Source: Folioceros fuciformis (Eukaryota). Taken from it: DNA of 64,000 nt. The translations under genes were made by a program, and so were the position numbers. This document shows positions 8,763-30,172 of this stretch, in pieces (positions within the stretch are counted from its first letter, which is position 1; every line of letters starts with the position of its first letter). The stretch lies in the NCBI GenBank assembly GCA_049999805.1, contig JBNGIO010005634.1, positions 1-64,000 of the forward strand, written 5' to 3'. The notes beneath the pieces are model-generated. The model did no database searches. It worked only from the letters and a program-made list of their open reading frames with translations, and was not told the origin of the DNA.

Positions 8763-9815
8763 TTAGAAGATTTCGTCATCAGGTATGACAGGGATGAGAA
8801 ACCTGCGTGGATCCTTCTCAGCATCAGCGTAATCCGGTCTAGGCTTCACTCTCTCCACATTCGGAGCAAGGGGGATGATGGCATCCTTGTCGATGACACC
8901 ATCGATCAATCCATACTCCATGGCCTCCACCGGGGACATGTAACGGTCCCTGTCAATATCTTTCTCCACCTGCTTGTATGGCCGACCTGTGATCTCTGAG
9001 ACGATGCGGATAATATTGCTCTTGTGATACATAATTTCCTTGGCTTGAATCTCCACATCGATGGCCTGGCCACTGGCACCTCCCATGGGCTGGTGCATCA
9101 TGATCCGGGCGTTGGGCATGGCAAAGCGCTTGCCCTTGGACCCGCCTGCCAACACAAGGGCAGCCGTAGATGCAGCCAGCCCGAAGGCGATGGTGGAAAC
9201 TTCAGCCCGACATAATTGGATAGCGTCGTATATCCCCATAGCAGCACTGCACAGCGAGCCACAGCCACAGTGCAAGTTACGTCACAGGGCCCGCCTGGCT
9301 AAACCATTGAATCCACATCCCATCCCGAAATTCTTCCACAATTGCCCGCAAGCACCTCATCCGACCTAACCCTAGGCAAGTTAGCAGTCGCAATACTGAG
9401 GCACGACGACTCGGTACCTGATCGACCCGCCGGGGCAGTTCACGAACAGCCGAATCGGCTTCTTGGGATCCATAGCATCCAGGAGCAAGAGCTGGCTAAC
9501 GATGGCGTCCGCTACAAAGTCGTCCATCTGGTGGCCCAGAAACACAATGCGTTGCTTAAGAAGCAGGCCCATGACGTCCGCCTCAGCCGAGCGCTGCGCC
9601 TGGGCAGGGGCCTGAGTCGCCACTATCCTCGCCGCAACCTGCACTCCAGCCCGCTTGAAACCCTTCCTCCATTGCCCCACCTGCCGGGGAGTCTTGAGCG
9701 GCAGAAATGCAGGAGAGCGCGAAGAGGAAGGCGCGCAGCAGGAAGTGGAGGGCAAGTCCCCTGAGTGAAGGCGACACAGGGCACTGCCTGCTGCCGCCAT
9801 TGCTGATGCTGCCAT
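8763..9815 (-). CDS. CLPP4: Plastid Clp protease proteolytic subunit ClpP4 (transit peptide, 2 exons)
   Basis: [39 protein letters not shown] / [53 protein letters not shown]. Catalytic Ser/His/Asp motifs are present and the C-terminal tail is typical of ClpP4. Confidence 0.9.
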
Positions 9816-10264
9816 TCCCTTACGATCCCCACAGCCTGTGCTCGCGGCTCAGCAGCCAACGCTAGGAACACACATTGGTCTAGCCGTCTTTCAGCTTAAG
9901 CCGGCCGACATATCTTCACGCCTACTCTAGCTTTACATAAGTGTATGTTGAGTAGGCACGTAGTCATCTTGGTACATAATGTACGTATATGAAAGAAAGA
10001 GAAACTCGAGGTAAATTTGCGGAAGAAATGCACGGTGAGAAGAGACAGAAGCACCACGAGCCACACAGGAGACTGCAATGGATTCATGTAAAGGAATACC
10101 TGAAAAGGAATTTGATGTTATTAATTTACATTTTTTTGATAAATCCACGTTCCGGGCGCGACTGCCCATGTCTACAGGATACTTCCGTCTGTCATGGAAT
10201 AGCTTTCTTGTTCCCTCTTCTTACTCCCTTGCCATCAATGGCTCCTTGCCATCTCGACATCTTC

Positions 10265-13120
10265 TCATCGAAACACTTGAGCAAACTTCTCGCTTTGGGG
10301 AGCAAGAAAGCTGTTTCGGCTTTGCACACAGACCTTCGTTGTTTGAGGATGGTTCAAAGTATCTTGCACTGCAAAAGTATGGACCAGCCCATCCATGTCT
10401 GTCCACCAGCTCTGGCCCGGCTGCTTCCGGGCCCCGGCTCGTCTTCTCCTTACCTGCATCTCCTGGGCTTGCTCCCACATCTGGGCACCGGTGTAGATGT
10501 TGGCCATGAGAACATAGGCTGCAGCATCTTGTTCGTCCAGCCTCACTGCTTCATTGAAAGCATGGCGTCCCACCTCCACGTTGCTCCACTTTTGACAAGC
10601 ACCCAACAGAGTGTGCCACACTACTGCATCCTGAGACTGCACGGGCATTGTTCTGGCCACCGCCAGCGCCTCTTGAACTTGGCCTGCACGACCAAGGAGG
10701 TCCACCATGCACGAGTAGTGCTCTGCTGTGGGAGTAATGCCATGCTCCCTGCTCATAACCTCGAATTGCTCTTGCCCTTTAGTCACCAGACCTGTGTGAG
10801 TGCATACGCTTAGTATACTGATGAATGTGATACTGTCTGGCTGTACGCCGTCCTCTCTCATTCTGTCTACCAAGTCGAAGACCACTTCACTGTTCCCTTG
10901 GCGGCTGTATCCTGCAATCAGTGCATTCCAAGGGACAATGTCAGGTTTCCAGGGCAACGCGTGGAACACCTGCTGTGCATCAACCATGCTCCCGCACCTT
11001 GCGTACATGTTTATCAAACTGACGGCTACAAACATGTCCGTTTGCAGCCCTTGTTCAACAATCTCTGTGTGAATATGCCTTCCTGCGTGTAACGCTGCTA
11101 CGTTTGCACATGCCTGCAGGAGGCACAGGAATGTTACAGAGTTGGGTTGAATACTACCATCTTCTCTCATGCCTTTGTAAAGATGGAGGGCTTCCTCAGC
11201 CATCCCCTCCTGGCAATACCCTGCTATCAGAGTGGTCCATGTCACCACATTTTTTTTAGGAACTCTGTCAAACATGCTTCGAGCATGCCGTATGCTGCCG
11301 CATTTTGCATACATGTCTATCAAACTGTTTGCTATAGACACATTATCTTGGAGGCCTTGCACTTCAACCTGAGCATGCAGCTGCTTTCCCACGTCCATAG
11401 CCCCGACACCCACAGCAGCACATGCCTGCAGGGTGCACACAAGCGTCACAGGATCTGGTACGACAACAGCTTCTTGCTGCATTGCAGAATAGAGAAGAAG
11501 GGCTTCCTGGCCCATTCCCTGCTGGGAATACCCAGCTATCATTGAGTTCCAGGTCACAATATCTTTGTGACAAACTCTATCAAAAACAGTGCGACCATGT
11601 TCCAGGCTGCCACACTTTGCGTACATGTTTATCAGATTATTGACTACAGTCACGTCAGATTGAAAGCCCCGTTCTTCAAGATAAGCATGAAGCTTCTTTC
11701 CCCTCTCTAGAGCTTTGATACCCACACTTGCACATGCCTGTAGGAGGCACACGAATGTCACAGCGTTTGGTTCAGCAGTACCTTCCTGTTGCATTAAGGT
11801 AAAGAGATGAAGGGCTTCCTCACCCATGCCCTGTTCGGAATATCCTGCGATCAGAGTTGTCCATGTGACGACATCCTTCTCAGAAAGGCCATCAAACACA
11901 CACTGGGCATCCTCTAACCTGTCACACTTTGAGTACATGTTCACTAGATTATTACCTATAGCTACATCAACTTGAAGGCCCTGTTCCTCTATCTGTGCAT
12001 GAAGCTGCTTTCCCGTCTCCAAAGCCAAGGCACCAACACTCGCACATGCCTGCAGGAGGCACACAAACGTGATAGAATCAGGTGAAGTGATGCCTTCTTC
12101 TTGCATAGCACAGTAGACAAGAAGAGCTTCCTCACCCATGCCCTGCTGGGAATATCCTGCAATCATGGCATTCCACGTCACGACATCCTTTGCACGCAGT
12201 CCATCGAACAGGCTCTTAGCATCATCAACGCTGCCACATTTCACATACATGTTTACCAGGCTGCACCCCACAACCACATCGACTTGCAGTCCCTGTTCTT
12301 CAATCTGTGCATGAAGCTGCTTCCCATTCCCCAAAGCGGAGACACCCACACTCACGCATGCTTGCAGGAGACATACAAATGTTACCACATCGGGTGGATG
12401 AATACCTTGTTTCTGCATATCACTGTGAAGACATAGGGCTTCCTGGCCCATGCCGCATTTAGCATACATGTCCACCAAGCAACTACAAAGAAACAAGTCA
12501 GGCGGAAGCCCACTGGCGAGAACATCAGCATGAACCTGCTGGCCACTTTTCAAGTCTGCTTCGCTTGCACAAGCCTGCAGAGCTGCCACAAACACGTGGC
12601 CATCTGGCTGCACACTTGACCTCCGCATCTGATGATACAATTCTATGGCCCCCTTGGCTCGTCCATGTTGAACATGCGCAGAGATTATGGAAGACCACAT
12701 GAACGCATCTGGTTCGGTCACCACAGTGAACACGTCCATCGCTTCTTCCAACCTCGAATGAGAAGCATACATCCGTAGGATGTGGTTGCACAGGAACGCG
12801 TCCGACTCGTACCCTCTCTTGACAGCGAGAGCATGAACACGGCGACCCAGAATCAGATCCTTCTTCAGCATACACAGCTTTACGACACTGAAGACTAGAG
12901 ACTTGGACATAGCAGAATGCGTCTGTACGAGAACTTCTAGAACCTCTACGGCCCTTGTCAGCTCCCCCTGCTGACATAGCTTGCTCCCTGTTTCAGCAGT
13001 CACGCTCACTTCGTGTCCTGCATATCCCTGAGTACAGAACTGCTGTTGCCACAAGATGCCCTGTCGCCTTCTCTGTGAATGAAGTGCAACGACCAAGGCA
13101 CCCATAGTTCGCCAAATCAT
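10265..13120 (-). CDS. PLS-class PPR protein with E domain and WW-type motif, DYW deaminase truncated (E+-like)
   Basis: Intronless ORF of P-L-S repeats (MYAKCG..DVVTWNAMIAGYSQQG..VTFVCLLQAC), E motifs (HYSCMVDLLGRAG; AYVLMANIY), then KQPGQSWWTDMDGLVHTFAVQD..HPQ and a stop before any HxE/CxxC. First ATG is at 13120; the ORF track extends to 13174. Confidence 0.9.
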   Translation of the reverse strand: MIWRTMGALVVALHSQRRRQGILWQQQFCTQGYAGHEVSVTAETGSKLCQQGELTRAVEVLEVLVQTHSAMSKSLVFSVVKLCMLKKDLILGRRVHALAVKRGYESDAFLCNHILRMYASHSRLEEAMDVFTVVTEPDAFMWSSIISAHVQHGRAKGAIELYHQMRRSSVQPDGHVFVAALQACASEADLKSGQQVHADVLASGLPPDLFLCSCLVDMYAKCGMGQEALCLHSDMQKQGIHPPDVVTFVCLLQACVSVGVSALGNGKQLHAQIEEQGLQVDVVVGCSLVNMYVKCGSVDDAKSLFDGLRAKDVVTWNAMIAGYSQQGMGEEALLVYCAMQEEGITSPDSITFVCLLQACASVGALALETGKQLHAQIEEQGLQVDVAIGNNLVNMYSKCDRLEDAQCVFDGLSEKDVVTWTTLIAGYSEQGMGEEALHLFTLMQQEGTAEPNAVTFVCLLQACASVGIKALERGKKLHAYLEERGFQSDVTVVNNLINMYAKCGSLEHGRTVFDRVCHKDIVTWNSMIAGYSQQGMGQEALLLYSAMQQEAVVVPDPVTLVCTLQACAAVGVGAMDVGKQLHAQVEVQGLQDNVSIANSLIDMYAKCGSIRHARSMFDRVPKKNVVTWTTLIAGYCQEGMAEEALHLYKGMREDGSIQPNSVTFLCLLQACANVAALHAGRHIHTEIVEQGLQTDMFVAVSLINMYARCGSMVDAQQVFHALPWKPDIVPWNALIAGYSRQGNSEVVFDLVDRMREDGVQPDSITFISILSVCTHTGLVTKGQEQFEVMSREHGITPTAEHYSCMVDLLGRAGQVQEALAVARTMPVQSQDAVVWHTLLGACQKWSNVEVGRHAFNEAVRLDEQDAAAYVLMANIYTGAQMWEQAQEMQVRRRRAGARKQPGQSWWTDMDGLVHTFAVQDTLNHPQTTKVCVQSRNSFLAPQSEKFAQVFR

Positions 13121-13460: not shown

Positions 13461-16208
13461 ATGGCGATGCCGCGAGAGCTGCCATTGCTGCCACCGACCC
13501 TGCACCAGCAACCAGGTAAGAAGTCCAGCTCCGCAACTTTCCGAACTGCGCTTGCGGCTGAAGGAATTTCGCACAAGGAACGACAGGAGTGTTTATGGCA
13601 ACAGTTCTTTCAAGAGCCCACCGAGTGGTGTGACAACAGGTTGGACAAGAGGACTGCCCGCTGTCCTGACTTCAGGCACAAGGCGTCGAAGGAGCCCCTG
13701 TGGCTTAACAATCGATCCAAGCCTAGCTGGGTGGACTCGGAGCTGGCCAGGTTGGATGGCCGTATGAGCGAGTCTGCACGACTGGTCAAGATTTTGAGCA
13801 AACGCTGTAAGGACGCACAGGTGGGCGAGGCGGTGGACGCGTTGGAGCTACTGGAGCAGCAAGGATGTCAGGTCACTGACTCTCTCATCTGCCGTGTTCT
13901 GAACAAGTGCGAAGGAGTGGAGGATTTGGAGCTGGTTAGACGCGTTCATGCTGTTGCGGTGAGATGTGGATATGAGTCGAACGCGTTTTTGGCCAACCAT
14001 TTCATTGTCATGTATGCGTCTCTTGGTACGTTGGAGGATGCATTCGAAGTCTTCATCAAAGTGGGTGCACCCAACGTCTACGTGTGGTCTGCCATTGTAT
14101 TGGCGCATGTCCGACATGGGCAGCCCAGGAAGGGCATCGAGATATATCGTCAGCTGCGAGACGCAGGTGTGAAGCCGAATGACCGCGTCTTTGTGGCAGT
14201 GCTGAAGGCCTGCGCCGTGGCAGGGGACCTGAGCGCTGGGAAGGAGGTGCATGCTGATATGCAGGGATGTGATTTGCAAGATGATGTTTTTGTGGGCAAC
14301 AGTCTGGTTAATATGTATGCTAAGTGTGGGGGCTTGGAGGATGCTTGCAGTGTGTTCGACAAAATGGCTACAAAAGATGTGGTGTCATGGAATGCCATGA
14401 TCACAGGATATACTCAACAAGGGCAAGGACGAGAAGCCCTGGCTCTGTACGTTAGGATGCAGCAAGAGGGCATAAATCCAGCGGATCGTGTTTCGTTCGT
14501 GAGCCTTCTTCGTGCTTGTGCCAGTGTGGGAGCCTTGCAGCAAGGGATGCAGCTTCATTCGAAGGTACGTGAACTAGGCCTTGAAGCTGATGTACGAGTT
14601 GGCAGCTGCCTGGTGGACATGTATGCAAAATGCGGGAGTTTGACCGCTGCTCGGAGAGTGTTTGATAGTTTGTCCTCGAGAGATGTGGTAACATGGAATG
14701 CCATGATGACAGGCTATGCGCAGCAGTCCCGTGGTCAAGATGCCTTGGCTCTGTATTCCTTCATGGAGGAGGAGAGCATCATTGTAGCCAATGACGTTAC
14801 GTTTGCATGCCTTCTTCAAGCATGTGCTGGTGTTGGAGCGCTGCAGCAGGGAGAACGGCTCCACTGCAAGATTCGTGAACGTGGCCTAGAAGCTGACGGA
14901 GTAATCGCTAACTGCTTGGTTAATATGTACGTGAAATGCGGGAAGTTGGAGGACGCTCGCAAAGTATTTGATAGTCTGCCCACAAAAGATGCTGTGACAT
15001 GGACTGCCATGATCTCAGGATATTCTCAACACGATCTTGGAGGCGAAGCTCTCGACGTCTATGCCAGTATGCAGAAGGAGGGAATCACGCCAGCTAATAA
15101 TGTTACTTTTGCATGCCTTCTTCAAGCATGTGCGAGTGTGGGAGCGTTGCAGCAGGGCAGGCATCTCCACTCACAGATTCATTACAGGGGCCTTGAAGCC
15201 GATGCAGTCATTGGTAATTGTCTGTTGGACATGTATGCAAAATGCGGGAGCTTGGAAGAAGCTCGGAGCGTTTTTGATCGATTGCCCACAAGAGATACGG
15301 TGGCGTGGAATGCCATGCTGACTGCTTATGCAGATAATGGCAATGGTGAAATGGCAATCAAGTGTTTCAATGAGATGCTTGTCAATGGTTGCCAGCCAGA
15401 TGCAACTACTTTCATTTGTCTTTTGGTGGCATGCAGTCAGGCAGGCCTGGTGTACGAGGGCAGGAAGTACTTCGGGATGATGGGGAAGCACGGGATCCAG
15501 CCCACTGATTATCACCACAGTTGCATGGTGGATCTCCTTGGCAGGGCAGGCCATCTTGTTGAGGCCGAAAGGATACTACTAACTGTGTCATTTGCGAATG
15601 ATGTGGTGGGCTGGACAGCTTTGCTCAGCGCTTGCAAAAGCTTCGGTGATGTGGATCGTGGAACACGATGTTTTGAGCATCTCGTAGGATTGGAACCACA
15701 GGATGCAAGCCCTTATGTGCTTCTGGGTAATATGTATGCCAATGCCGGCAGGTGGGATGATGTAGATAGAATAGAAAGCTTGAGAAAGTCCTCAGGTGCC
15801 AGGAAAAAACGCGCCAAAGCTTTTATTGAACTGAGCTCCGTGGTGCACGAGTTCGCCGTGGGAGACGAGAGGTACGATATTTCAACAAAGCTTAAGAATG
15901 TGAACACGAGGTTGCAAGACGAAGGAGGTCATGTGCCCCAAACCGGGCTGGTGCTGAAGGCAGTGTCCGAGCAGGAAAAGGAGGATTCTTTGTGTGGCCA
16001 TGCAGAGAAGTTGGCATTGGCCTACGGTCTGCTCAACACACCGGATGGCACGACCTTGCTTGTCACAAAAAACCTCCGCATGTGTAGTGACTGCCACAGC
16101 AGCACAAAAATCATGTCCCGTCTGGAGAAACGAGCTGTCATTGTGAGAGATTCCCACCGAGTGCATCGGTTCAAGGATGGCTCTTGCTCATGCGCAGATC
16201 GGATTTGA
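13461..16208 (+). CDS. PLS-class PPR-DYW protein, KP/DRH-type variant (candidate U-to-C organellar RNA editing factor)
   Basis: Intronless PLS array plus E motifs, then KKRAKAFIELSSVVHEFAVG..GGHVP..LCGHAEKLALAYGLLNTPDGTTLLVTKNLRMCSDCH..RDSHRVHRFKDGSCSCADRI*. Confidence 0.92.
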   Translation: MAMPRELPLLPPTLHQQPGKKSSSATFRTALAAEGISHKERQECLWQQFFQEPTEWCDNRLDKRTARCPDFRHKASKEPLWLNNRSKPSWVDSELARLDGRMSESARLVKILSKRCKDAQVGEAVDALELLEQQGCQVTDSLICRVLNKCEGVEDLELVRRVHAVAVRCGYESNAFLANHFIVMYASLGTLEDAFEVFIKVGAPNVYVWSAIVLAHVRHGQPRKGIEIYRQLRDAGVKPNDRVFVAVLKACAVAGDLSAGKEVHADMQGCDLQDDVFVGNSLVNMYAKCGGLEDACSVFDKMATKDVVSWNAMITGYTQQGQGREALALYVRMQQEGINPADRVSFVSLLRACASVGALQQGMQLHSKVRELGLEADVRVGSCLVDMYAKCGSLTAARRVFDSLSSRDVVTWNAMMTGYAQQSRGQDALALYSFMEEESIIVANDVTFACLLQACAGVGALQQGERLHCKIRERGLEADGVIANCLVNMYVKCGKLEDARKVFDSLPTKDAVTWTAMISGYSQHDLGGEALDVYASMQKEGITPANNVTFACLLQACASVGALQQGRHLHSQIHYRGLEADAVIGNCLLDMYAKCGSLEEARSVFDRLPTRDTVAWNAMLTAYADNGNGEMAIKCFNEMLVNGCQPDATTFICLLVACSQAGLVYEGRKYFGMMGKHGIQPTDYHHSCMVDLLGRAGHLVEAERILLTVSFANDVVGWTALLSACKSFGDVDRGTRCFEHLVGLEPQDASPYVLLGNMYANAGRWDDVDRIESLRKSSGARKKRAKAFIELSSVVHEFAVGDERYDISTKLKNVNTRLQDEGGHVPQTGLVLKAVSEQEKEDSLCGHAEKLALAYGLLNTPDGTTLLVTKNLRMCSDCHSSTKIMSRLEKRAVIVRDSHRVHRFKDGSCSCADRI

Positions 16209-16717
16209 CAGCTTCGAGAGATTCATGTCCAAGAATGTTGAAGCAAAGAAGATGCCAACCCACAGCTTCCAGAAGAAGCTCGGCTCTGACATGGATGCGG
16301 ACGCAGGTTGCGGACCAAATCTGGCCCTTCAGGTACGACTTTGATAACACCACACCCTCGGAATCCATCATCATTGAATGCCGCAACTGTGAAGAAACCT
16401 CGTTCTCCCGCTAACCCCATGCAGTTGGCAGGCACTGGCTTCACGATCCTTATCAATCGCGTTCTTCCGTGCCTTCTCCAAGTGACCTAACATCGGGTTT
16501 CTTCGAATCTTATACACTCCCGCCAAGCTTTCATCGTGACTTGGACTTATTTCTTGAAATTACATTCTATCATCATTTCATATATGCACATTATTTACAT
16601 ATATTATCACATATAAAATATATATATTATTATTATGATTATATATATCATTATATAATAATACACATCATTATATATCTACATCCTCATCTATACACCC
16701 TCATTTGGTTGGGTTAA

Positions 16718-16965
16718 ACAAGAGTGGTGGGCACCATACATATGTTTGCCTGATCCGCCCCAAGAGTGGTGGGCACCATCCATATGTTTGCCTGATCCCG
16801 CCCCCAAGAGTGGTGGACACCATCCATATGTTTGCCTGATCCCACCCCCAAGAGTGGTGGACACCATCCATATGTTTGCCTGATCCGCCCCCAAGAGTGG
16901 TGGGCTCCATCCATATGTTTGCCTGATCCGCCCCCAAGAGTGGTGGGCACCATCCATATGCCTGA
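16718..16965. repeat. ~42-bp minisatellite (~6 copies; CAAGAGTGGTGGGCACCATCCATATGTTTGCCTGATCCGCCC)
   Basis: Directly visible, downstream of an AT-rich low-complexity tract (16560-16690). Confidence 0.95.
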
Positions 16966-17029
16966 CTCGCTGACAATATCAATTGAAGTAGTGGGCATAA
17001 TCCATACTTCATCCTTCTCCAATAAGCAG

Positions 17030-17850
17030 CGCAAATGAAGACTAGTGTTGTGACCAATAAGACCTCCACAAGGATTGGTCGCTATTGAAGCCATGTCTTG
17101 ACTCACATAAGGAGTGCAAATGAAGATTAGCGTTGTGACCAATAAGAACTCCACAAGGATTGGTTGTTGAATAAGCCATGTCTTGACTCACACATCAAAT
17201 TCTCTCAGCTTCAGCTACAACTCCTTGTCTGGTTCTAACATCAATTTCCCTTAGCTTCAGCTACATCTGGCACCATGACTCACACATCAAATTCTCTCAG
17301 CTTCAGCTACACCTCCTTGTCTGGTTCCAACATCAATTTCCCTTAGCTTCAACTACATCTACATCTGGCACCACACGACTTTCTGGTCTGGTTGTTTAGA
17401 GTTGAAGTTCTAGCCCTAATCTGGCTATTTGCAATTGAAGCTCAAGCCCTTTCCGATTGCTTGCAGTTGAAGCTTGAGCCCGAACCTACATGGTTGTTGC
17501 TTAGTTCGTTGCTTAGTTCGTTGGAGCTCAAACCCAAGTCTACAAGGTTATTTCCCTTATCATCAATTGCATCTAGCACCATGCAACTTTCGGTCATTTT
17601 TAGTTGGAGCTCAAGCCCACAAAGTTATTTCCCTTGCTTTAGCTGCACCTAGCACCATGCAATCAGGGTCAAGCCCATGATAACAAATGTGAGCTTGAGT
17701 GAATGAGTATAAGAATAAGTGTGAGTCTGAATGTGAGAACAATTGTGAGATAGCAAGCACAAACAAAGCCCATATGAGCTTGAGTGAATGAGTGTAAGAA
17801 TAAGTGTGAGTTAGAATGTGAGAACAATTGTGAGACAGCAAGCACAAACA
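17030..17850. repeat. Cluster of short tandem duplications (~90-bp and ~76-bp units)
   Basis: Duplicated blocks ..TGACCAATAAG..CCACAAGGATTGGT.. (17030-17190), GACTCACACATCAAATTCTCTCAGC.. (17186-17370) and TGAGCTTGAGTGAATGAGT..GCAAGCACAAACAA (17690-17850). Confidence 0.8.
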
Positions 17851-18241
17851 ATCAAGCGATTTTTTTTGCTATGAGAGTGTGAGAACAGAGAAGTGGTGTG
17901 TGTGTGAGAATCATGGATTGTTTTGCTAATGTTGGTCAATAATTGCTTTTCCCATGTTCTCTATCCTAAAACTATAGATTATATTTTATTTATAACTAAA
18001 ATTGTTATATAATAAAAGTTTATACCTCACTTATACTTCCATCAAATAAAGACAAACATAATATCCTGGTATGATATAAAAGACATACATACATATATAC
18101 AAACATGCACAGGCCTTGTGTGAAAAGAGGAAACAGGCATGCGAGTGGATTGGTGTAACTAGGTAAGTTAAAAGTGGGGGTTACTGCGGCCAATCTTCTA
18201 GTGTATGTGGACCTTCGGAAGTTGGCTGTGTGAAGCAGAAG

Positions 18242-20638
18242 ATGGTGCCCGCAGCAATGGCGCCAGCAATGGCGGCAGCACGCACTCTCTCTTGGACTGA
18301 ACTGGGCTCTCCCCCGTCGTCCTCGTCGCCTTCCTCTTCGCTGTCTTGTGCTGCGTCTCTTCCAACCCGGTCCCCACGGCAGCTGGCCCGGTGGAGAAAG
18401 GGTTTTATGAAGGCCGGATTCCAGCTGGCGGCAAGGAACTCGGATCTCGCCTCCTTCTCGCTGACCAGGAGCGAAATCGATGGATTCTGTACCTTTTCTG
18501 CTTCTGCCGCATTGCCGCCACAGGCAGGATATGGAGCTCGGGGCTTGTCGCCCGGGGGGACGTCGAGAGCTGTTGTCCGAGGAGGGGCTGCATCCGGGGT
18601 AGTGAGGTGCAGGGCAATCAACGAAATTGGCAGTGTGAACGGTTCTTTGGAGACCTTTCCTGCAGAGGCCTCTGCACCCGTGGAAGACATTGATTCCCAG
18701 GTTGCTGGTTTTCAGACCTTGACTGCGGAGATCACGCCGGACAGGGATGAATTTTTTTCCAGTGAAACAGATGGTGATCCTGATCGGCCGTCGCCTGGAT
18801 TCGCCTCGGTTGCTGAGGGGGTGGAGGCTATTCAGCAGGGAAAGGTGGGGAGGATGCCTAGGCTTTTCAATGGTTCTTTGTTCTGTTTGGATTTTTGTGC
18901 CAGAAGAATTTTGGAAGTGCTTGTTTGATCTGAACAGGTGGTTTTTACAGTTTGTCATTGCGGTGGATGACGAAGACAGGGAAAATGAAGGAGATTTGAT
19001 TCTGGCAGCATCCCTCGTCACACCTGAGGCTGTTGCCTTTATGGTAAAGCATTGCACTGGAATAATATGTGTGGGAATGACGTCTGAGCAGCTGGACCGT
19101 CTGAATCTGCCTCTGATGGTCAGAGACAAGGAGAACGAGGAGGCTCTTCGCACAGCATTCACAGTCACTGTGGTCAGTACTTTGGTCCTGGGCCGTGGGG
19201 TGACTTCGGAAAGCTAAGCTGTTTTCAAGGGATGTTGCTCATAAGTTTTAACCGTCATCCTCTCCCTTGTAGACTGATTTGGAGCTATGTGCCGCTTTCC
19301 GTCATTGGTAGGATGCTAGGACGGGAACAACAACCGGGGTGTCGGCCTCTGATAGAGCGCAAACTATCCTGGCTCTGGCTTCCCCTGATACCAAGCCTGA
19401 CGACCTTCGTCGTCCAGGCCATATTTTCCCGTTGCAGTATCGGGAGGGTGGGGTGCTGAAGCGGGCAGGGCATACGGAAGCAGCTGTGGACCTAGCCACT
19501 CTGGCAGGTCTGCCACCAGTGGGTGTCTTGTGTGAGCTTGTGGATCCAGAGGACGGCTCCATGATGCGATTACCCAAGCTTCGAGAGTTTGCCCATGAGC
19601 ACGATGCACTGCTAATATCGATTGCAGACCTTGTAAGGTAGGCAGGCCCGGGCTCATCTATCTTATTATGCAAATAGTGCTGGCCTCCTCTTCTGAAACC
19701 CGGGTCTTTGCCATGCCATATGTAGTGGTGAAGGTTCTATTGACAAGACTGTTTGGCGGCTTATGCAGGTACAGGAGAAAGCGTGAAAAGCTGGTGATTC
19801 AGACAGCCGTTGCTCGATTGCCAACAAAATGGGGAGTGTTCAAAGTGTATAGCTACGAATCGAAGCTGGATGGTATGGAGCATGTGGCAATGGTGAAGGT
19901 CAGTGTCTCTCAGGGCACCGTGCAACTGTCGAAAGCATCGTGGCTCTGACTCCAGCGAGCGTGTGAACCTCATTGCAGGGAGACATCGGCGATGGCCTGG
20001 AAGTCTTGGTCAGGGTGCACTCGGAATGTCTGACAGGAGACATCTTCGGTTCTGCGAGATGCGACTGTGGAAACCAACTTGCTGTTGCCATGGCAGAGAT
20101 AGAAGAGGCGGGCAGGGGTGTTCTTGTGTACCTGCGAGGGCATGAAGGCAGAGGCATAGGCCTCGGCCACAAACTTCGCGCCTACAACCTCCAAGACGCT
20201 GGCCGTGACACTGTCGAGGCCAATGTGGAACTGGGCCTCCCTGTGGATTCCCGGGAATACGGCATCGGAGCTCAGGTACGCCTAGATTAACCCGTCCTCA
20301 TCCGATACGATATGTTCCACTCGGCCTTCGCAACGCCTGCTGTTAACACGTTTTGGGAATGTGTGCTGCAGATTCTGCGAGACGTGGGAGTGCGTACCAT
20401 GAAGCTCATGACCAACAACCCCTCCAAGTTCGTTGGTCTGAAGGGATATGGCCTCGCCGTCACAGGCCGAGTGCCGGTCATCTCCCCCATCACCTTGGAG
20501 AACCAAAGGTACCTCGAAACCAAGCGGTCCAAGATGGGACATGTCTACGGATCCGACCTCCCAGGCTCGTTTGCAGGCATTCTCGTCGCCGACTCCCCGA
20601 ACACAATCACTGGCGCCGAGACAGAGTCAGCTGGCTAG
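18242..20638 (+). CDS. RIBA: Bifunctional DHBP synthase / GTP cyclohydrolase II (riboflavin biosynthesis), plastid-targeted, 6 exons
   Basis: [93 protein letters not shown]. Confidence 0.95.
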
Positions 20639-21426
20639 GCTCAAGTCCGCTCGCTGGCAGGCTTGGCAAGTTGGGGATTAAGAGACACCAGCGGCGTGTG
20701 GTGCCTTATTATGTGAGGTGCCTGAAGTTTTATTGCTTCACCATGGCATTCCTCCCAACAGGCACTAAGTCTGTTTGGGAACGTGTGGCTGCTCATAGCC
20801 CACCACCCTGGTCTGTGTCACTTTTCGAAGTGGCCGGCTTGAGCTTTTGCCTGGCTATCTTTCTTAGGAGCTTTTGCTGGAACACAACGTTGTTTCCATA
20901 TGTTGTCTTGAACCGCATTGGATAAGTGGCTCACGAGTTAGATTTGCGGATTGGATTTTTGCACACAATGTCTTTCAGGTATCTATGTTGAGACCATTTG
21001 TGCCTGCAAAGAGAAAGAGGACTTGTGCCTGCAAAGAGAAAGAGGACATTGGACAGGAAGTACAGTAGTATCCTGGTGCAGAAGGTAGCGTGGCCAGAGG
21101 GAGATTGAAGATTTCCTTGTAGAAGGTAGTGTGGCTTTAGGAGTTTTTGCCTGGCCAAATGTTGTTTCCAAATGTAGCAAGAAACATACTTGCATCAAGA
21201 CAGCTATAGATTTAGTTTTCATTTTTTTACTTTTAATTTTTATCTTATTTCACTTGTGCCATTTGTTCAATGGCACCTATATGGCGTAGCAGGACTGTGA
21301 TGGTGTGACCATTCGCCTACAACCAAGTTCAAATTCGTTCCGTACGGAAGTCGCTAGCTTCCGGGGTCGTAGGCGTATTTGAGTGAGAGACATACATCGG
21401 TACTTTGCAGCACTGCACCATAACCA

Positions 21427-21684: not shown

Positions 21685-23745
21685 ATGAGGCGGGATTGCG
21701 TAGCACAGCTTGTGTTTGTTGTGATGCTGTTCAATGTTATCCATATCTTCCTCGCGTCCAGGTCGGCTTCGCGTGGAGAGCTGGTGAAGCATGCAGTGGT
21801 CAACAAGGCTCCGTACATTTCCAAGCCTTGGCCCGAACTTCCTTCGCACAGGGACTGGCTTCCGACGCCTGGCTTGGGGAAGGAGGCGTGCGAATATTAT
21901 TTCGGGAATGGCTTCACCGTGCCGTACGACATGCTCTCACGACTTAGAGGCGAGCGGACGCTTGCAGGCCCTGCCAACTCCGGGCTGGATTTGGCAGGGT
22001 CGGAGTCGGTGGAGGAGAGCTGGCTGCGGAAAGAGCAAAAGAGCGATGCGGCCGGTGTGAGTGTGGACGGGGATTCTGAGGTGCAGGAGCAGCTTGGAGG
22101 AGGTCCTGGTAATGCGCGGTGGCGCAAGATGATGCCGGAGTTGAGGAGCGGGGAGCTGGAACTGCCAAGTGACCGGCTGCTCATGCCGGATGGATCCCTC
22201 ACTTGTGTTTACAGCGCGACCTTGCGGACGTCTGTTTGTGAAGGTACTGCCGTTGTCATGAAAGTGGACAAGTTGGAGATGTCCAGAGGTGGAGAGGCTG
22301 TGGAAGCTGTTCTCGGGAGGTCTGATGAGGAGGAGCTTCCCGTTTTTAATGATGGTGCTTTTTCGGTTGTTACCGACCGTACGCCTGCGGACAGGCGAGT
22401 GATGAATAGTCAGGTTCTTGATGACGTCATGCCACGGGGCCACATCAATTTCCACACCATGAGGGCGTTGTTTGAGTCCATGCGATCACTTGATCCATCC
22501 GGAGTGCGCTGCACCGAGGTGAAGTGTCGTTGCCTGGACCGTCATGCTGGTGTGTGAGGATAGACGGCACTGTGAAGGACCTGGAGACGACGTCTTGCGG
22601 GAGCTGATTGATTGTGGTTTTTGTGGACCTGCCGTGGATGCAGAGAGTGCAAGAGCCAACTCTTTTCGTTACGCGTTTTGAATATGCTAATCTCTTTCAC
22701 ACTGTAACGGATTGGTATAGTGCGTATGTGGCATCGAGGGTAGCACGTCTCCAGCAGCGTCCTAGGGTGATACTGTTGGATGGGCATTGCAAGGTAGGGC
22801 CATGTTGCTCTGCAGGTTTTAATGTGTTAGGGCTATTACCTTTTTACCTTTTGGCACGCGCCAGGTATTGTGAGCAGCTTACTAGTTGAAGAGGATTCTG
22901 ATTTTGTTCTGGTTGTGCGTGATTTTCAGTCACCCTTTGATGACGGATGGGAGGCAATGTTCAGCAATGTCTCATATGCCATGCACCACCGTGGCACGCT
23001 TTGCTTTGACAAGGCCATTTTTGTGCCTTTAGGATACGATACTGCTCTCTTCAAGGGTTTGGAGAACGGCCTCCGTTGCCGGGGATGCTCACTTCAAGAG
23101 TGTCAGTCAAAACCTGACCCTGAGGGTTTCACCAATAGACTGCGTGAGTTCGGGGAGTTTTTTGTCACTGCGATGAATGCTAGGTATGAAAGTGCACGAG
23201 GGAATGCTGGCGAGGGGAAGAAGAATGTCCGAGTTCTTTTTATAAGGCGCGAGGCGTACCTTGCCCACCCCAGACACAGTGGGAAACCGGAGTCCAGAGT
23301 GAGCAATGAGGAAGAACTGTATGATGCTTTGGTGGAGTGGGCTTCTGCGAGGTCTGCACTTGTGCGGACAGGAGCTGCTGCTGCACACACATTCGGGCGG
23401 ACAGAGAGTAGGAAAATTGAAGAAGCTTTAGCCCAAAATGTGAGCATCATGAATGGTTTTTTTGCTCACATGAGCTTACGAGATCAATTGCAGCAGGTGC
23501 AAAGTGCTGATATCATACTCGGAGCCCACGGGGCTGGTATGGCACACATTATATTTGCTAGGCCCGGGACTGTCATTCTCGAGCTTCTGAGTCCTCTCTT
23601 TTCACGGCCTCATTACGCTTATATTGCAGGATGGATGGGATTACCGTATGAACCCATTGTCGGGCAAGGGAACTTGGCAGACACATCCAATGTGGTGACC
23701 ACTCTGGACATGCTCCTGAGCCAACTCAACAGAATCCCAGGCTGA
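21685..23745 (+). CDS. XYLT: N-glycan beta-1,2-xylosyltransferase (GT61), 3 exons
   Basis: N-terminal signal anchor; KPWPELPS..CEYYFGNGFT; MSRGGEAVEAVLGRSDEEELP; EPTLFVTRFEYANLFHTVTDWYSAY; DGHCK; RREAYLAHPRHSGKPESRVSNEEE; GAHGAGMAH. Confidence 0.92.
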
Positions 23746-27298: not shown

Positions 27299-30172
27299 AT
27301 GCTGCAGAACAAGTCTTTCACGAGGAAGACCCGGAGAGGCAAGGTGCTGAAAGTAGTCCGGGAGCATTATCTGAGAGATGACATATGGTGCGGAGCTGTC
27401 TTTTGTGAGGACTGCGACACGACTTCTGCTTGTTTGCGGAAGTCGCCGGAGCAGATAGTGGTGATTGATACCAACGTTGCTCTCCATCAGATCGACCTGC
27501 TGGAGAATCCTGGGATAGGTAACGTGGTGGTACTGTCGGTGGTTTTGGAGGAGGTGAAGAACAAGAATATCAGTGTCTACAATCGACTGAGGGCTATTTG
27601 CAGCAACCCGGAGCGGCGGTTTTTTGTGTTTGCAAATGAGCATCATAGGGATACCTTTGTCACGGGGAGGGATGGGGAGAGCCCGAACGATCGGAATGAC
27701 AGGGCAATTCGCGTTGCAAGTGCGTGGTATCAGGCGCACTTAGAGGGGGCTAGGGTTTTGCTAGTCACTAACGATGCAGAGAATCGGAGGAGAGCGAGTG
27801 AGGAGGGAGTGCGTGCGGAGACTGTACAGTCGTTTGTGCAGTCGCTTGGGCAGCCTGAGCTCCTGGATTTGGTGGCTCAAGCGAAAAATGAGGATGTGGA
27901 CGATGTGGAAGATGCTCGAGCGTTCAAGAGGACGAGGATATATGCAGACCACAAGCCTATGTCTGAGATCACGGCAGGTCTGCATACTGGTCTCTATCAC
28001 CAGGGTAAACTGAGAGTTAATAGGTATAACTCGTACTCGGCTTCAGTGACGGTGGACTCTGTTGGTGCTGATGTTCTTGTGAATGGGCGAGTGGACATGA
28101 ATCGGGCATTCGATGGTGACGTAGTGGCTGTGGAGTTGCTGCCTGAGAGTCAGTGGAGTGATGGCATCTCGAACAAGATCATGGAAGAGGAGGAGGAAGG
28201 GGCAGAAGATGCTGTCAGTTTGGTCCCGGCTACTGCAGAAGATGCACCTGAGGCTGCTGAAATATTAGCTGAGCCTGTGCCAAAGGATGGTTCTGGCCCC
28301 GGCAAACCCTGTGGTCGTGTTGTAGGTATTATCAAGCGTAATTGGCGAAGTTATTGCGGATCATTGCAAGCACCCCGGGCTGGTGAGGGTGGGGGATCCA
28401 CAAGTGCGTTGTTCATTGCCACGGATAAGAGGATACCCAAGATCCGGATACAGACAAGGCAGCTTTCTAATCTGATATCGAAGCGGTTAATGGTGTCTGT
28501 GGACTTTTGGGAGCCAACATCTCTCTATCCTTCGGGTCACTACATCAAGACGCTCGGGGACATTGGAGATCGTGCTACTGAAAGTGACATATTGCTGATA
28601 GAAAATGACATCAATACCAGGCCATTTTCAGCACAGGTGATGGCTTGTGTTCCGAAGTCTCCCTGGGTCATGCCGCAAGAGGAGCTTAGAAATGTACATC
28701 GTGAGGATTTTCGCCAGCGTCGGATTTTCAGTGTCGACCCCCCCGGATGTACAGATATAGATGATGCCTTGAGTTGCACCCTTCTTCCGTCTGGAAATTA
28801 TGAGGTTGGTGTCCACATTGCAGATGTCACGACGTTTGTCCATCCTGGCACCCCGCTAGATGATGAGGCAGCAGAACGTGGCACTTCTACTTACTTGGTG
28901 GAGCGGCGTATAAACATGCTTCCGAAGGAGCTGACAGAAGACGCTTGCTCCCTTAGAGCAGACGTGGAGCGGCTGGCATTTTCTGTGTTGTGGGAAATGA
29001 CTCCTGATGCAGATGTGATTTCTACCCGTTTCACCAAAAGCATAATCAAGTCTTGTGCAGCCTTCACATATGCTGAAGCGCAGGCACGTATAGATGACAC
29101 CCAGATGGAAGACCCATTGACAACTGATCTTCGCCACATGAATGGGCTTGCAAAGGTCATGAGAGCCAGGAGAATAGAGCGTGGAGCCTTGACTCTGGCA
29201 TCGCCGGAGGTGAAGTTTGATATTGACACAGAGACTCATAATCCTTTGGATGTAGCAATGTACCAAGTGAGGGAAACCAACCAGATGGTCGAAGAGTTCA
29301 TGCTTGCTGCGAACGTATCAGTAGCTCAGAAGATTCTGAAGCATTTCCCCTTCTGTTCTTTACTGAGGCGGCATCAGATCCCAACTCCCAAGATGCTGGA
29401 ACCTTTAGTGCGAACAGCAGCAGCCGTGGGTGTGGAGTTGGACATCACCTCTTCCAGGTCTCTTGCTGATTCTCTGGACAGAGCCGTAGGAGTTGATCCA
29501 TACTTCAACAAACTGATCAGGATTCTGGCAACACGCTGCATGACCCAGGCGTTGTATTTCAGCAGCGGGAATGTCTCTGAACCCGAGTTCCACCACTATG
29601 GCCTGGCTGCCCCTCTTTACACCCATTTCACTTCCCCCATCAGGAGATATGCGGATGTTATCGTCCATAGGTTACTTGCAGCTGCCTTGGGATTGTGCAG
29701 CCTTCCTGCTTCTTTGCAGGACAAAAAATCCCTTACAGACATCTGCGACATCCTCAATTACCGGCACCGAAATGCCCAAGTGGCAGGTCGAGCTTCCGTC
29801 GAGCTCCATACTCTCATCTTCTTCAAAGAAAGGCCCACAGACACGGAGGCAAGGATTGTGAAAATCCAGTCCAACGGCCTCATTGTGTTCGTGCCTAAAT
29901 ATGGCATTGAGGGCCCAGTCCACTTCGAGGGCAAAGAGGAAAACTCAAGCAGAATCACCTCTGCCAAAACCAAGGTACGAGACCTTCCTCCTCAGAACAA
30001 AGAGCCCTCGCTCGGTTGGGTTGTGAACGAGAAGACCCAGACTGTGTCGTCCACTGGGAGCTCGGTTCTGTACAGAATATTGGATAAAGTATTCGTCCAC
30101 ATCGAAGTCGTAGAACCCCAACCTAGCCGAAGAAAACTACAGCTCACACTTATTCCTGAGTTGCCCTCTTAG
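27299..30172 (+). CDS. RRP44A: Exosome complex exonuclease RRP44/DIS3 (PIN + CSD + RNB + S1), single exon
   Basis: MLQNKSFTRKTRRGKVLKVVREHYLRDDIWCG; PIN motifs VIDTNV and ESPNDRNDRAIR; RNB catalytic SVDPPGCTDIDDAL; HYGLAAPLYTHFTSPIRRYAD. Confidence 0.96.
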   Translation: MLQNKSFTRKTRRGKVLKVVREHYLRDDIWCGAVFCEDCDTTSACLRKSPEQIVVIDTNVALHQIDLLENPGIGNVVVLSVVLEEVKNKNISVYNRLRAICSNPERRFFVFANEHHRDTFVTGRDGESPNDRNDRAIRVASAWYQAHLEGARVLLVTNDAENRRRASEEGVRAETVQSFVQSLGQPELLDLVAQAKNEDVDDVEDARAFKRTRIYADHKPMSEITAGLHTGLYHQGKLRVNRYNSYSASVTVDSVGADVLVNGRVDMNRAFDGDVVAVELLPESQWSDGISNKIMEEEEEGAEDAVSLVPATAEDAPEAAEILAEPVPKDGSGPGKPCGRVVGIIKRNWRSYCGSLQAPRAGEGGGSTSALFIATDKRIPKIRIQTRQLSNLISKRLMVSVDFWEPTSLYPSGHYIKTLGDIGDRATESDILLIENDINTRPFSAQVMACVPKSPWVMPQEELRNVHREDFRQRRIFSVDPPGCTDIDDALSCTLLPSGNYEVGVHIADVTTFVHPGTPLDDEAAERGTSTYLVERRINMLPKELTEDACSLRADVERLAFSVLWEMTPDADVISTRFTKSIIKSCAAFTYAEAQARIDDTQMEDPLTTDLRHMNGLAKVMRARRIERGALTLASPEVKFDIDTETHNPLDVAMYQVRETNQMVEEFMLAANVSVAQKILKHFPFCSLLRRHQIPTPKMLEPLVRTAAAVGVELDITSSRSLADSLDRAVGVDPYFNKLIRILATRCMTQALYFSSGNVSEPEFHHYGLAAPLYTHFTSPIRRYADVIVHRLLAAALGLCSLPASLQDKKSLTDICDILNYRHRNAQVAGRASVELHTLIFFKERPTDTEARIVKIQSNGLIVFVPKYGIEGPVHFEGKEENSSRITSAKTKVRDLPPQNKEPSLGWVVNEKTQTVSSTGSSVLYRILDKVFVHIEVVEPQPSRRKLQLTLIPELPS

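Follow-up and report, generated by a model that had tools for sequence, protein, structure and literature searches.

The locus at positions 13461–16208 (forward strand) of a Folioceros fuciformis contig raises the question of whether it encodes a natural enzyme of "reverse" (U-to-C) RNA editing. An initial annotation had read it as a native, full-length U-to-C factor; this reading is supported in part, namely for a native and full-length gene, which is complete, probably transcribed, and contained in a single ORF. The window analyzed here comprises 64,000 nucleotides of this contig. The reading we prefer, with a probability of roughly 0.6, is that a nuclear, intronless, and probably transcribed gene encodes a PLS-PPR protein with a catalytically complete, DRH-like DYW:KP domain, which would carry out U-to-C editing by the mechanism proposed below.

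Integrity and Organization of the Gene

The ORF scan of 13461–16208 (+) revealed 2748 nucleotides with neither stops nor frameshifts, that is, a complete intronless coding sequence for 915 amino acids plus the stop codon. Pfam retrieved the PPR, PPR_1, PPR_2, PPR_3, E_motif, and DYW_deaminase families from the protein, in which a PDF motif is followed by a PLS-PPR array, E1, E2, and a DYW:KP domain. The translation of 15795–16208 (+) yields 137 residues followed by a stop, GARKKRAKAFIELSS...CSCADRI*, and corresponds to the C-terminus of the 915-residue ORF; in the corresponding register of the opposite strand, internal stops occur. All the features listed in the following lie on the forward strand unless otherwise stated.

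Residues 1–39 (13461–13577), among which S, T, A, P, L, K, and R abound and acidic residues are few, may represent an organelle-targeting presequence, and the protein would be imported into either the plastid or the mitochondrion. The PDF motif, which is of the OSB kind according to profile matches to OSB3, OSB2, and OSB4, covers residues 40–98 (13578–13754). The 18 PLS-class PPR motifs (residues 105–714; 13773–15602) were segmented by hand, whereas a script checked lengths and contiguity and extracted the 5th and last residues. The array begins with a degenerate P-L-S triplet and continues with four P1-L1-S1 triplets and one P2-L2-S2; the lengths of the contiguous motifs (35–36 residues for P, 35 for L, and 31–32 for S, followed by E1 and E2) fit the PLS class. 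The PPR-like motifs E1 (residues 715–748) and E2 (residues 749–782) occupy 15603–15806, a placement based on segmentation and on the Pfam E_motif (PF20431, residues 729–783, E 1.2e-13). The DYW:KP domain consists of 133 residues, K783–I915 (15807–16205). In the numbering of the KP literature, the domain starts at K783 (nucleotide 15807), 12 nucleotides after position 15795, from which it had been counted initially. According to its sequence, 13461–16208 can be regarded as an intact PPR gene of the plant organelle RNA-editing type linked to "reverse" U-to-C editing.

A second PLS-PPR gene, separate from the KP gene, lies head-to-head with it (10265–13120, reverse strand). Its ORF codes for 951 amino acids of the E+ type (Pfam PPR and E_motif); besides the E motifs, it contains a DYW domain of PG/WW type of which only the initial portion is present (KQPGQSWW...NHP), with no Pfam DYW_deaminase match. 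A DYW core hidden behind a frameshift or an intron was considered and discarded, neither HxE nor CxxC being found in the three frames of about 660 nucleotides downstream. Furthermore, probing the window by tblastn with the KP domain matched 15795–16205 alone and did not retrieve a second DYW domain.

Motifs, Residues, and Fold of the DYW Domain

The Pfam DYW_deaminase profile (PF14432) matched residues 823–913 with an E-value of 4.5e-35, over profile positions 1–91 of 93 and with the HxE and CxxC zinc ligands present; with the cut-off at 24, the score of 119.8 bits is far beyond chance. The AlphaFold model of the domain has a pLDDT of 88.4, and Foldseek gave TMq values of 0.89 to the synthetic PPR-DYW protein 9kfx, 0.78 to 7o4f (OTP86), and 0.75 to 7w86 (DYW1). 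The sequence matches of the domain in the PDB range from E 3.8e-37 to 2.2e-32.

The fold is shared with the PG-type domains of OTP86 (7o4e/7o4f), DYW1, and 9kfx (TMq 0.75–0.89, 36–48% identity), as are the HxE...CxxC zinc site, the conserved lysine, and the C-terminal CxC. In these domains, the box is PG, the xHP gating segment is longer by about four residues, HSE and RFHHF are found, and the C-terminus is DYW; moreover, they catalyze C-to-U editing and occupy another part of the tree. The motifs on which the assignment to the KP class had originally been based are all readable in the translation: the PG box is lacking, the domain starts with KKRAKAFIE, and HAEKLA, CSDCH, HRF..CSC, and a terminal DRI are present in 15795–16208. 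Likewise, the gating region described as shortened (GDERYDIS, without HP) corresponds to a gap of four residues with respect to the SHPQ segment of 9kfx, the whole segment comprising 12 residues in the Folioceros protein vs. 16 in the PG rows.

The zinc-binding histidine and the catalytic glutamate of HxE are found in H847-A848-E849 (15999–16007). The signature thus takes the HAE form characteristic of KP domains (A in 44 out of 46 relatives), compared with the HSE form of 212 out of 290 extracted DYW domains. K870 (16068–16070), mapped by alignment, corresponds to Lys88 in the KP-domain numbering; this numbering was derived by matching L6, E64, K88, L113, I119, and F133 of KP6 to the fern-type relatives, D116 being unmatched. 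The CxxC zinc ligands and the next histidine are C875-S-D-C878-H879 (16083–16097). The last segment (16164–16205), H902-R-F...C909-S-C911-A-D-R-I915, embeds the H..CxC motif (H902...C909-S-C911), which we take to be a second zinc site, and the DRI end that replaces DYW.

The comparison with 46 other short KP domains revealed that, among the 50 columns with at least 85% conservation, only one deviates (I111V). H65, E67, K88, C93, C96, and H97 are kept and are identical in all 46 relatives; K68 is also kept (K in 45 out of 46). The KP box, in turn, has an arginine in place of the name-giving proline, so that KKRAKAFIE aligns with the KKPAKACIE of the relatives; this second box position is P in 37 of them and another residue in nine, and P0217 likewise has KKRA. 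The C-terminal triplet DRI has diverged from D-Y-W and is not DRH, the last residue among the 46 relatives being H (18), P (8), F (3), or various others. The suggestion that KR and DRI might be informative for the amination chemistry was not borne out: both fall at naturally variable positions (P in 37/46, H in 18/46), whereas the catalytic positions are invariant (46/46), and they are therefore weak handles on this chemistry.

Phylogenetic Position of the Domain

The position of the domain was analyzed in two trees, whose reference rows were assigned to DYW classes, and labeled, according to their motifs and not by the published DYW:PG/WW/KP HMMs. In the quick tree of 291 DYW domains (FastTree), the Folioceros domain falls into two starred sets, one of 32 and one of 42 rows, all of KP type, with a support of 97 for the 42-row KP-only set. 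The IQ-TREE analysis of 91 rows included all 51 KP-type rows, 12 of the 31 rows classed as "KP-box but long HSE/HCE", and 28 of the 196 PG rows, picked at random; with a bootstrap not fully settled (correlation 0.965), it placed the domain in KP-only sets of 30 (97/80), 32 (99/90), and 42 rows (100/93). Both motifs and phylogeny thus bear out the proposed DYW:KP class, and in the trees the domain stands apart from the PG/WW rows, clustering with which had been named as an outcome contrary to it.

Regarding the subgroups, the quick tree unites the four GRP rows in a clade of their own (support 98) that does not include the Folioceros domain, and it sets the fern-type rows apart in a six-row clade. 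The domain groups with rows mostly ending in DRH, the forks within this group being unresolved in the quick tree and in IQ-TREE. The best 28 of 51 matches share 50–75% identity over the last 146 amino acids and combine HAE (27) or HVE (1) with a box of the KP type and a short gating segment. The C-terminus of most of them is DRH or GRP, which the accessible part of PMC9478123 gives as the two KP variants of hornworts. The nearest named matches are ferns (49% identity), and the closer records end in DRH or GRP. The protein searches did not retrieve a close orthologue, the best identities being 75% and 73%. These similarities suggest, as far as sequence comparison goes, that the domain belongs to the DRH-like (non-GRP) subgroup of DYW:KP.

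In the accessible sections of PMC9478123 and PMC13386178, DYW:KP domains are known only from hornworts, lycophytes, and ferns, i.e., plants with U-to-C editing, in agreement with the taxonomic restriction that had been claimed for this clade. The hornwort DRH-type DYW:KP PPR proteins (Gerke et al. 2020 and Gutmann et al. 2020, as described in the accessible part of PMC9478123) share with the Folioceros protein the PLS-E1-E2 organization, a domain of 133 residues without xHP, the KKxAKAxIE box, HAE, NLRMCxDCH, RDxHRVHRF, and CSC. The differences concern arginine for proline, DRI for DRH, F6 and S116 (C and A, respectively, in most relatives), and the N-terminal PDF motif of the Folioceros protein.

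Probable Transcription and Maintenance of the Gene

Contigs of run X3 are colinear with the gene, with no differences, over 13607–14404, 14711–15255, and 15230–16332. X3 and another run, X6, are labeled as RNA by guess only, and RNA libraries can carry DNA. However, one X3 contig skips 9247–9417, a segment with ends CT..AC (GT..AG on the minus strand), and since this joint is present in X3 and absent from both DNA runs, X3 contains spliced RNA. The exact X3 matches over the gene, in a run with spliced sequence, therefore imply that the gene is probably transcribed.

Within its very large family, the gene is an ordinary one, with nothing special in its catalytic core. The domain search retrieved 2555 cluster representatives at E ≤ 1e-3, the contigs of the same organism matching the PPR parts with at least 85% likeness are counted in thousands (5011 from run X1), and in one hornwort PPR genes represent about 7.9% of the gene set (PMC7027989, as far as accessible). 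In such a huge and fast-duplicating family, an intact-looking gene might be a redundant or decaying paralogue with no site left to edit, and the atypical residues that replace the KP proline and end the protein would fit this picture. We consider this improbable: a decaying copy is at odds with 2748 nucleotides free of stops and frameshifts, with a single deviating column among the 50 conserved ones of the domain, which puts it on a par with most relatives, and with the coverage of the gene by contigs of the spliced-RNA run. Moreover, a counterpart from organism B, a related species (X6 record 26), aligns with 15429–16262 with 82 differences and no gaps and has remained gap-free over about 780 coding nucleotides at about 10% divergence.

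As for the surrounding sequence, X4 record 17 (organism B) spans the 5' ends of both the KP gene and its head-to-head neighbor, and two segments (16619–17019 and 17421–17821) without X3 cover are both covered by X1.

Proposed Catalysis and Direction of Editing

The accessible sections of the KP literature (PMC9478123 and PMC11845758) report assays on synthetic consensus proteins, and no native KP protein, nor any of DRH type, is described there as proven active. In PMC9478123, in its accessible part, only KP2, KP3 (GRP type), and KP6 (fern type) out of seven designer KP proteins edited U to C, so that the activity ascribed in general terms to engineered KP domains applies to three of seven designers. 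The three that edited in E. coli do not include KP1, the DRH-consensus designer, and C-to-U activity was observed with none of the seven in this host (same source). In human cells, KP6 has C-to-U activity as well, and few substitutions switch its direction (PMC11845758); the direction is therefore not fixed by the family. Lys88 is essential for U-to-C editing in synthetic KP enzymes (PMC11845758 and PMC11713852, accessible sections).

The Folioceros protein belongs to the same domain family as KP2, KP3, and KP6 and harbors HAE, CxxC, and Lys88, all required for their activity; the difference is that the designers are consensus designs from other subclades, whereas the Folioceros protein is a natural one. 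Lys88 (K870) is, on the other hand, likewise conserved in PG domains. A U-to-C activity of the Folioceros protein is suggested by family membership. According to the proposed mechanism, each of the 18 PLS motifs would bind one nucleotide, so that the array would cover about 18 nucleotides of a single organellar transcript. The code of the 5th and last residues predicts the target 5'-Y A n U U n G Y n U A n U U n G-3' at positions −19 to −4, a prediction that decodes the P and S motifs only, and not L, E1, and E2; the first motif of the array is degenerate. Editing takes place four nucleotides downstream of the base with which S2 aligns (accessible sections of PMC9478123, PMC11845758, PMC11713852, and PMC12733224); E1, E2, and the DYW:KP domain would place the base to be edited into the zinc site formed by H847, E849, C875, and C878. 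Here, uridine would be converted into cytidine. For synthetic KP proteins, the published model has this conversion proceed through attack by an active-site lysine, which would be K870 in the Folioceros protein.

The six positions that switch the direction of KP6 were also inspected. V119 corresponds to the U-to-C state, G64 and V113 correspond to C-to-U states, and F6, S116, and I133 match neither state; this mixed pattern is uninformative as to the direction. An editing factor acting as a C-to-U deaminase, or bidirectionally, instead of a dedicated U-to-C enzyme, would be compatible with G64 and V113, with the lack of C6 and A116 (which favor U-to-C), with the absence of U-to-C editing by the DRH-based KP1, with the behavior of KP6 in human cells (bidirectional and switchable by few substitutions; PMC11845758, accessible part), and with the integrity of every deaminase residue. 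Nevertheless, G64 and V113 represent the majority states in the hornwort-like KP clade (40/46 and 41/46, respectively), and the Folioceros gene is therefore not singled out by them. Furthermore, HAE and the short gating region mark a clade confined to U-to-C plants, K88, which restrains C-to-U editing in KP6, is present, and zero of the seven designers edited C to U in E. coli; on balance, a C-to-U or bidirectional factor appears unlikely.

A U-to-C enzyme is the likelier reading, and the one we retain, for this gene. Being natural, intact, probably transcribed, and DRH-like, in a class whose activity has so far come from consensus designs only, it is a reasonable object for a test, although hornwort genomes contain very many equally good candidates.

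The N-Terminal PDF Motif

The least expected feature of the Folioceros protein is the PDF motif, the stretch ..LWQQFF..P..WCDNR..K....PDFRHK...E.LWL...KP.WV within residues 40–98. No Pfam model matched this stretch; the sole Pfam match of residues 1–120, CTK3_C (E 0.25), is at chance level and was rejected as an identity for this region. The comparison of the N-terminal part with the ESM Atlas did not yield a usable match. A PDF profile built from the Folioceros stretch and the corresponding ones of P0009 and P0015 matched OSB3 (E 3.1e-34), OSB2 (2.8e-16), and OSB4 (6.7e-15), as well as other PPR proteins.

OSB proteins consist of an OB-like fold and one to three C-terminal PDF motifs, and the PDF motif of AtOSB1 binds ssDNA by itself (PMC6963530, accessible part). 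The motif of about 50 residues is common to OSBs and the Folioceros protein; the latter differs in having a single PDF motif, located N-terminally to the PPR array, and Pfam detected no OB fold either in the whole protein or in its N-terminal part. The rest of the protein being a PPR array, the Folioceros protein shares a motif with the OSBs and is not itself an OSB.

The binding of ssDNA by the isolated AtOSB1 motif, together with the inactivity of the DRH-type designer, could also be taken to mean that the Folioceros protein, with its PPR array and PDF motif, is mainly an RNA- or nucleoid-binding protein, acting, for instance, in transcript stabilization, with a DYW:KP domain not used for catalysis. 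This is very unlikely, as the zinc ligands, the glutamate, and the lysine are kept here and in all 46 relatives, and such complete conservation argues for selection on catalysis. A tentative and rather improbable idea is that the PDF motif might work as a second nucleic-acid-binding module in a subset of PPR editing factors, either tethering them to nucleoids or nascent transcripts or widening their footprint. If so, this would represent an undescribed architecture, and the absence of the native PDF context could explain the inactive DRH-type PPR-plus-DYW consensus designs.

Full-text literature searches did not retrieve any description of a fusion between a PDF motif and PPRs, and this fusion is the one feature of the gene that may add something new. 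Two of the 51 long relatives have an N-terminal PDF motif, namely the unnamed KP-type proteins P0009, which ends in DRH, and P0015, which ends in GRP. Elsewhere, a DYW protein of PG type from a moss and a PPR protein from a fern contain the motif, and a PPR protein of 1374 amino acids has three copies of it.

Structure of the KP gene

The translation of 15795-16208 (+) reads GARKKRAKAFIELSS...HAEKLA...CSDCH...HRFKDGSCSCADRI, followed by a stop codon, while the opposite strand in the same register contains internal stops; all the domain features listed in the initial annotation, which had proposed a candidate U-to-C editing enzyme here, are present in it. This segment represents the C-terminal end of a single ORF of 915 aa (13461..16208, +; hereafter the KP gene), in which Pfam retrieved PPR, PPR_1, PPR_2, PPR_3, E_motif (residues 729-783) and DYW_deaminase (residues 823-913, E 4.5e-35); probing the window with tblastn did not retrieve any second DYW domain. 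The protein was segmented by hand, the lengths and contiguity of the motifs being checked by script. It comprises a possible presequence (residues 1-39), a conserved N-terminal motif (residues 40-98, 13578-13754, +), 18 contiguous PLS motifs (residues 105-714; one degenerate P-L-S, four P1-L1-S1 triplets, and P2-L2-S2), E1 (residues 715-748), E2 (residues 749-782) and a DYW domain of 133 aa (K783-I915).

Numbered as in the KP literature, with K783 taken as K1, H65/A66/E67 correspond to H847/A848/E849, K88 to K870, and C93/C96/H97 to C875/C878/H879. This numbering was derived by matching residues L6, E64, K88, L113, I119, and F133 of the fern-type designer protein KP6 (PMC11845758) to fern-type relatives in the alignment, D116 being left unmatched.

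Classification of the DYW domain

When the domain is aligned with 9kfx, the structure of a PG-type synthetic PPR-DYW protein, a gap of four residues falls exactly at the xHP segment of PG domains. With the last 146 residues as the query, a word-indexed search considered 362 candidates, 51 of which matched at E <= 1e-3. The first 28 share 50-75% identity with the query, a short gating segment, a KKPAKAxIE-type box and either HAE (27) or HVE (1). Most of them terminate in DRH or GRP, which PMC9478123 describes as the two variants of DYW:KP in hornworts. The closest named proteins are fern KP-like domains (49% identity), and angiosperm PG domains show 37-46% identity. An exhaustive phmmer search yielded 2555 cluster representatives at E <= 1e-3, 43 of them at E <= 1e-30.

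The 290 DYW domains taken from all fetched proteins were classed by motifs. In the FastTree phylogeny (291 rows) the domain falls within two starred sets (32 and 42 rows) made up solely of KP-type domains. In the quick tree, four GRP rows form a separate clade (98), as do six fern-type short rows; the long KP-box rows from ferns fall outside, and PG rows lie on the opposite side. An IQ-TREE analysis (LG+C20+F+G4) was carried out on 91 rows, namely all 51 HAE/HVE rows and random samples of those with a KP box but long HSE/HCE (12 out of 31) and of PG rows (28 out of 196), with two long-branch rows left out; it placed the domain in KP-only sets of 30 (97/80), 32 (99/90), and 42 rows (100/93), the bootstrap being not fully settled (correlation 0.965). 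On motifs and placement in the tree, the domain is thus classed as KP type, as originally assigned, and is probably DRH-like rather than GRP. That the gene is intact and also belongs to the KP clade appears almost certain.

Catalytic core and proposed function

Across 46 other short KP domains, 50 alignment columns reach a conservation of 85% or more, and the KP gene differs at just one (I111V), its column conservation equalling or exceeding that of most relatives; H65, E67, K88, C93, C96, and H97 are the same in all 46 and in the KP gene. An AlphaFold model of the domain from a 32-row alignment (mean pLDDT 88.4) superposes on 9kfx, OTP86, and DYW1 with TMq values of 0.89, 0.78, and 0.75, respectively. 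The KR and terminal DRI variants had been proposed as handles on the amination chemistry. Of the 46 relatives, 37 carry P at position 2, and KKRA recurs in one (P0217); R occupies position 132 in 24, and at the C-terminal end 18 relatives have H, 8 have P, 3 have F, and 17 have some other residue. Since these positions vary naturally, whereas the catalytic core never does, the two variants do not look promising for that use.

U-to-C editing has been obtained with KP2, KP3, and KP6, three of seven designer (consensus) proteins, and requires HAE and CxxC (PMC9478123); Lys88 is essential for this activity, probably by forming a covalent intermediate (PMC11845758, PMC11713852). According to the published PPR code (T/S+N = A, T/S+D = G, N+D = U, N+S = C), in which the edited base lies 4 nt 3' of the base aligned with S2 (PMC12733224), the P and S motifs of the array predict the target Y A n U U n G Y n U A n U U n G at positions -19 to -4. 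From the KP literature and the code of the array, the best explanation, to which we assign a probability of about 0.6, is that the protein would act as a site-specific organellar U-to-C editing factor. Three points from the literature count against it: editing was seen with three of the seven designers, and KP1, the one based on the DRH type, is not one of them (PMC9478123); the KP proteins for which we found published assays are all synthetic; and KP6 can edit C to U as well. A further weakness is that the six KP6 "switch" positions are mixed in the KP gene: V119 corresponds to the U-to-C state, G64 and V113 to C-to-U states, and F6, S116, and I133 match neither.

Transcription and counterpart in a related organism

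The RNA label of X3, a sequencing run of the source organism, is only a guess. A gene at 9000-9845 (-) contains a 171-nt GT..AG intron (9247-9417) that is removed in contigs of X3 and of X6, the resulting joint being absent from both DNA runs; by this both runs are recognized as RNA, and X3 therefore contains spliced RNA. X3 contigs align to the KP gene without gaps or a single difference over 13607-14404, 14711-15255, and 15230-16332; the gene is therefore probably transcribed, and it has no intron in the covered parts. A counterpart also exists in a related organism, where X6 record 26 aligns over 15429-16262 with 82 differences and without gaps.

Upstream, a neighbor at 10265..13120 (-) lies head to head with the KP gene, 340 bp from its start codon, and codes for a PLS-PPR protein of 951 aa with E motifs. 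Its DYW start, with a PG/WW-type box and HP (KQPGQSWW...NHP), is cut short and lacks the catalytic core; by these motifs it is assigned to the E+ type, which is enriched in hornworts (PMC13386178). The related organism shares this head-to-head pair, since one of its DNA contigs (X4 record 17) spans both 5' ends. The PPR parts of both genes are matched by thousands of contigs from the source organism, and in one hornwort about 7.9% of genes are PPR genes (PMC7027989); the KP gene is one unremarkable representative of a very large family that has already been described.

An N-terminal PDF motif

Residues 40-98 contain a motif, ..LWQQFF..P..WCDNR..K....PDFRHK...E.LWL...KP.WV, common to the KP gene and two relatives, P0009 (ending in DRH) and P0015 (ending in GRP), and covered by no Pfam model. 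A profile of these three sequences matches proteins named OSB3, OSB2, and OSB4 (E 3.1e-34 to 6.7e-15), and on this profile match the region is identified as an OSB-type PDF motif; the PDF motif of AtOSB1 alone suffices for ssDNA binding (PMC6963530). The same profile also retrieved a PPR protein of 1374 aa with three copies (P0315), a Ceratodon DYW protein ending in GDFW (P0324), an Adiantum PPR protein (P0327), and a PPR fragment of 324 aa; the motif is N-terminal in P0009, P0015, P0319, P0324, and P0327. Full-text literature searches retrieved no paper in which PPR or DYW proteins are associated with the PDF motif, which does not prove that the fusion is undescribed; in the one paper containing both terms, PPR denotes RNA polymerases. 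A catalogue of editing-factor domain fusions (PMC13386178) mentions neither PDF nor OSB.

Other features of the window

Just downstream of the KP gene, tandem repeats (16719-16960, 17022-17360, and 17690-17851) consist of a 44-bp unit repeated 5.6 times (95% matches), then 85-, 92-, and 85-bp units repeated about twice, and account for repetitive minus-strand ORFs. A spliced gene follows at 18200-21000 (+), whose exon 18747-19217 codes for part of DHBP synthase (riboflavin pathway, PF00926); a single contig of X3 aligns in two places, 18221-18842 and 20369-21000. The ORF at 22957-23745 (+) has a glycosyltransferase family 61 domain (E 1.1e-11), and the preceding ORF (21685-22557), with no Pfam match, may be the N-terminal part of the same gene. 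A single ORF of 957 aa (27299-30172, +), apparently intronless, codes for a Dis3/Rrp44-like exoribonuclease with PIN_4, CSD1, CSD2, RNB (E 3.9e-100), and S1. Lastly, a copia-type LTR retrotransposon comprises a gag ORF (38928-39737, +; Retrotran_gag_2) and an 801-aa ORF with RVT_2 (40859-43264, +); the gap between the two suggests a disrupted or frameshifted polyprotein.
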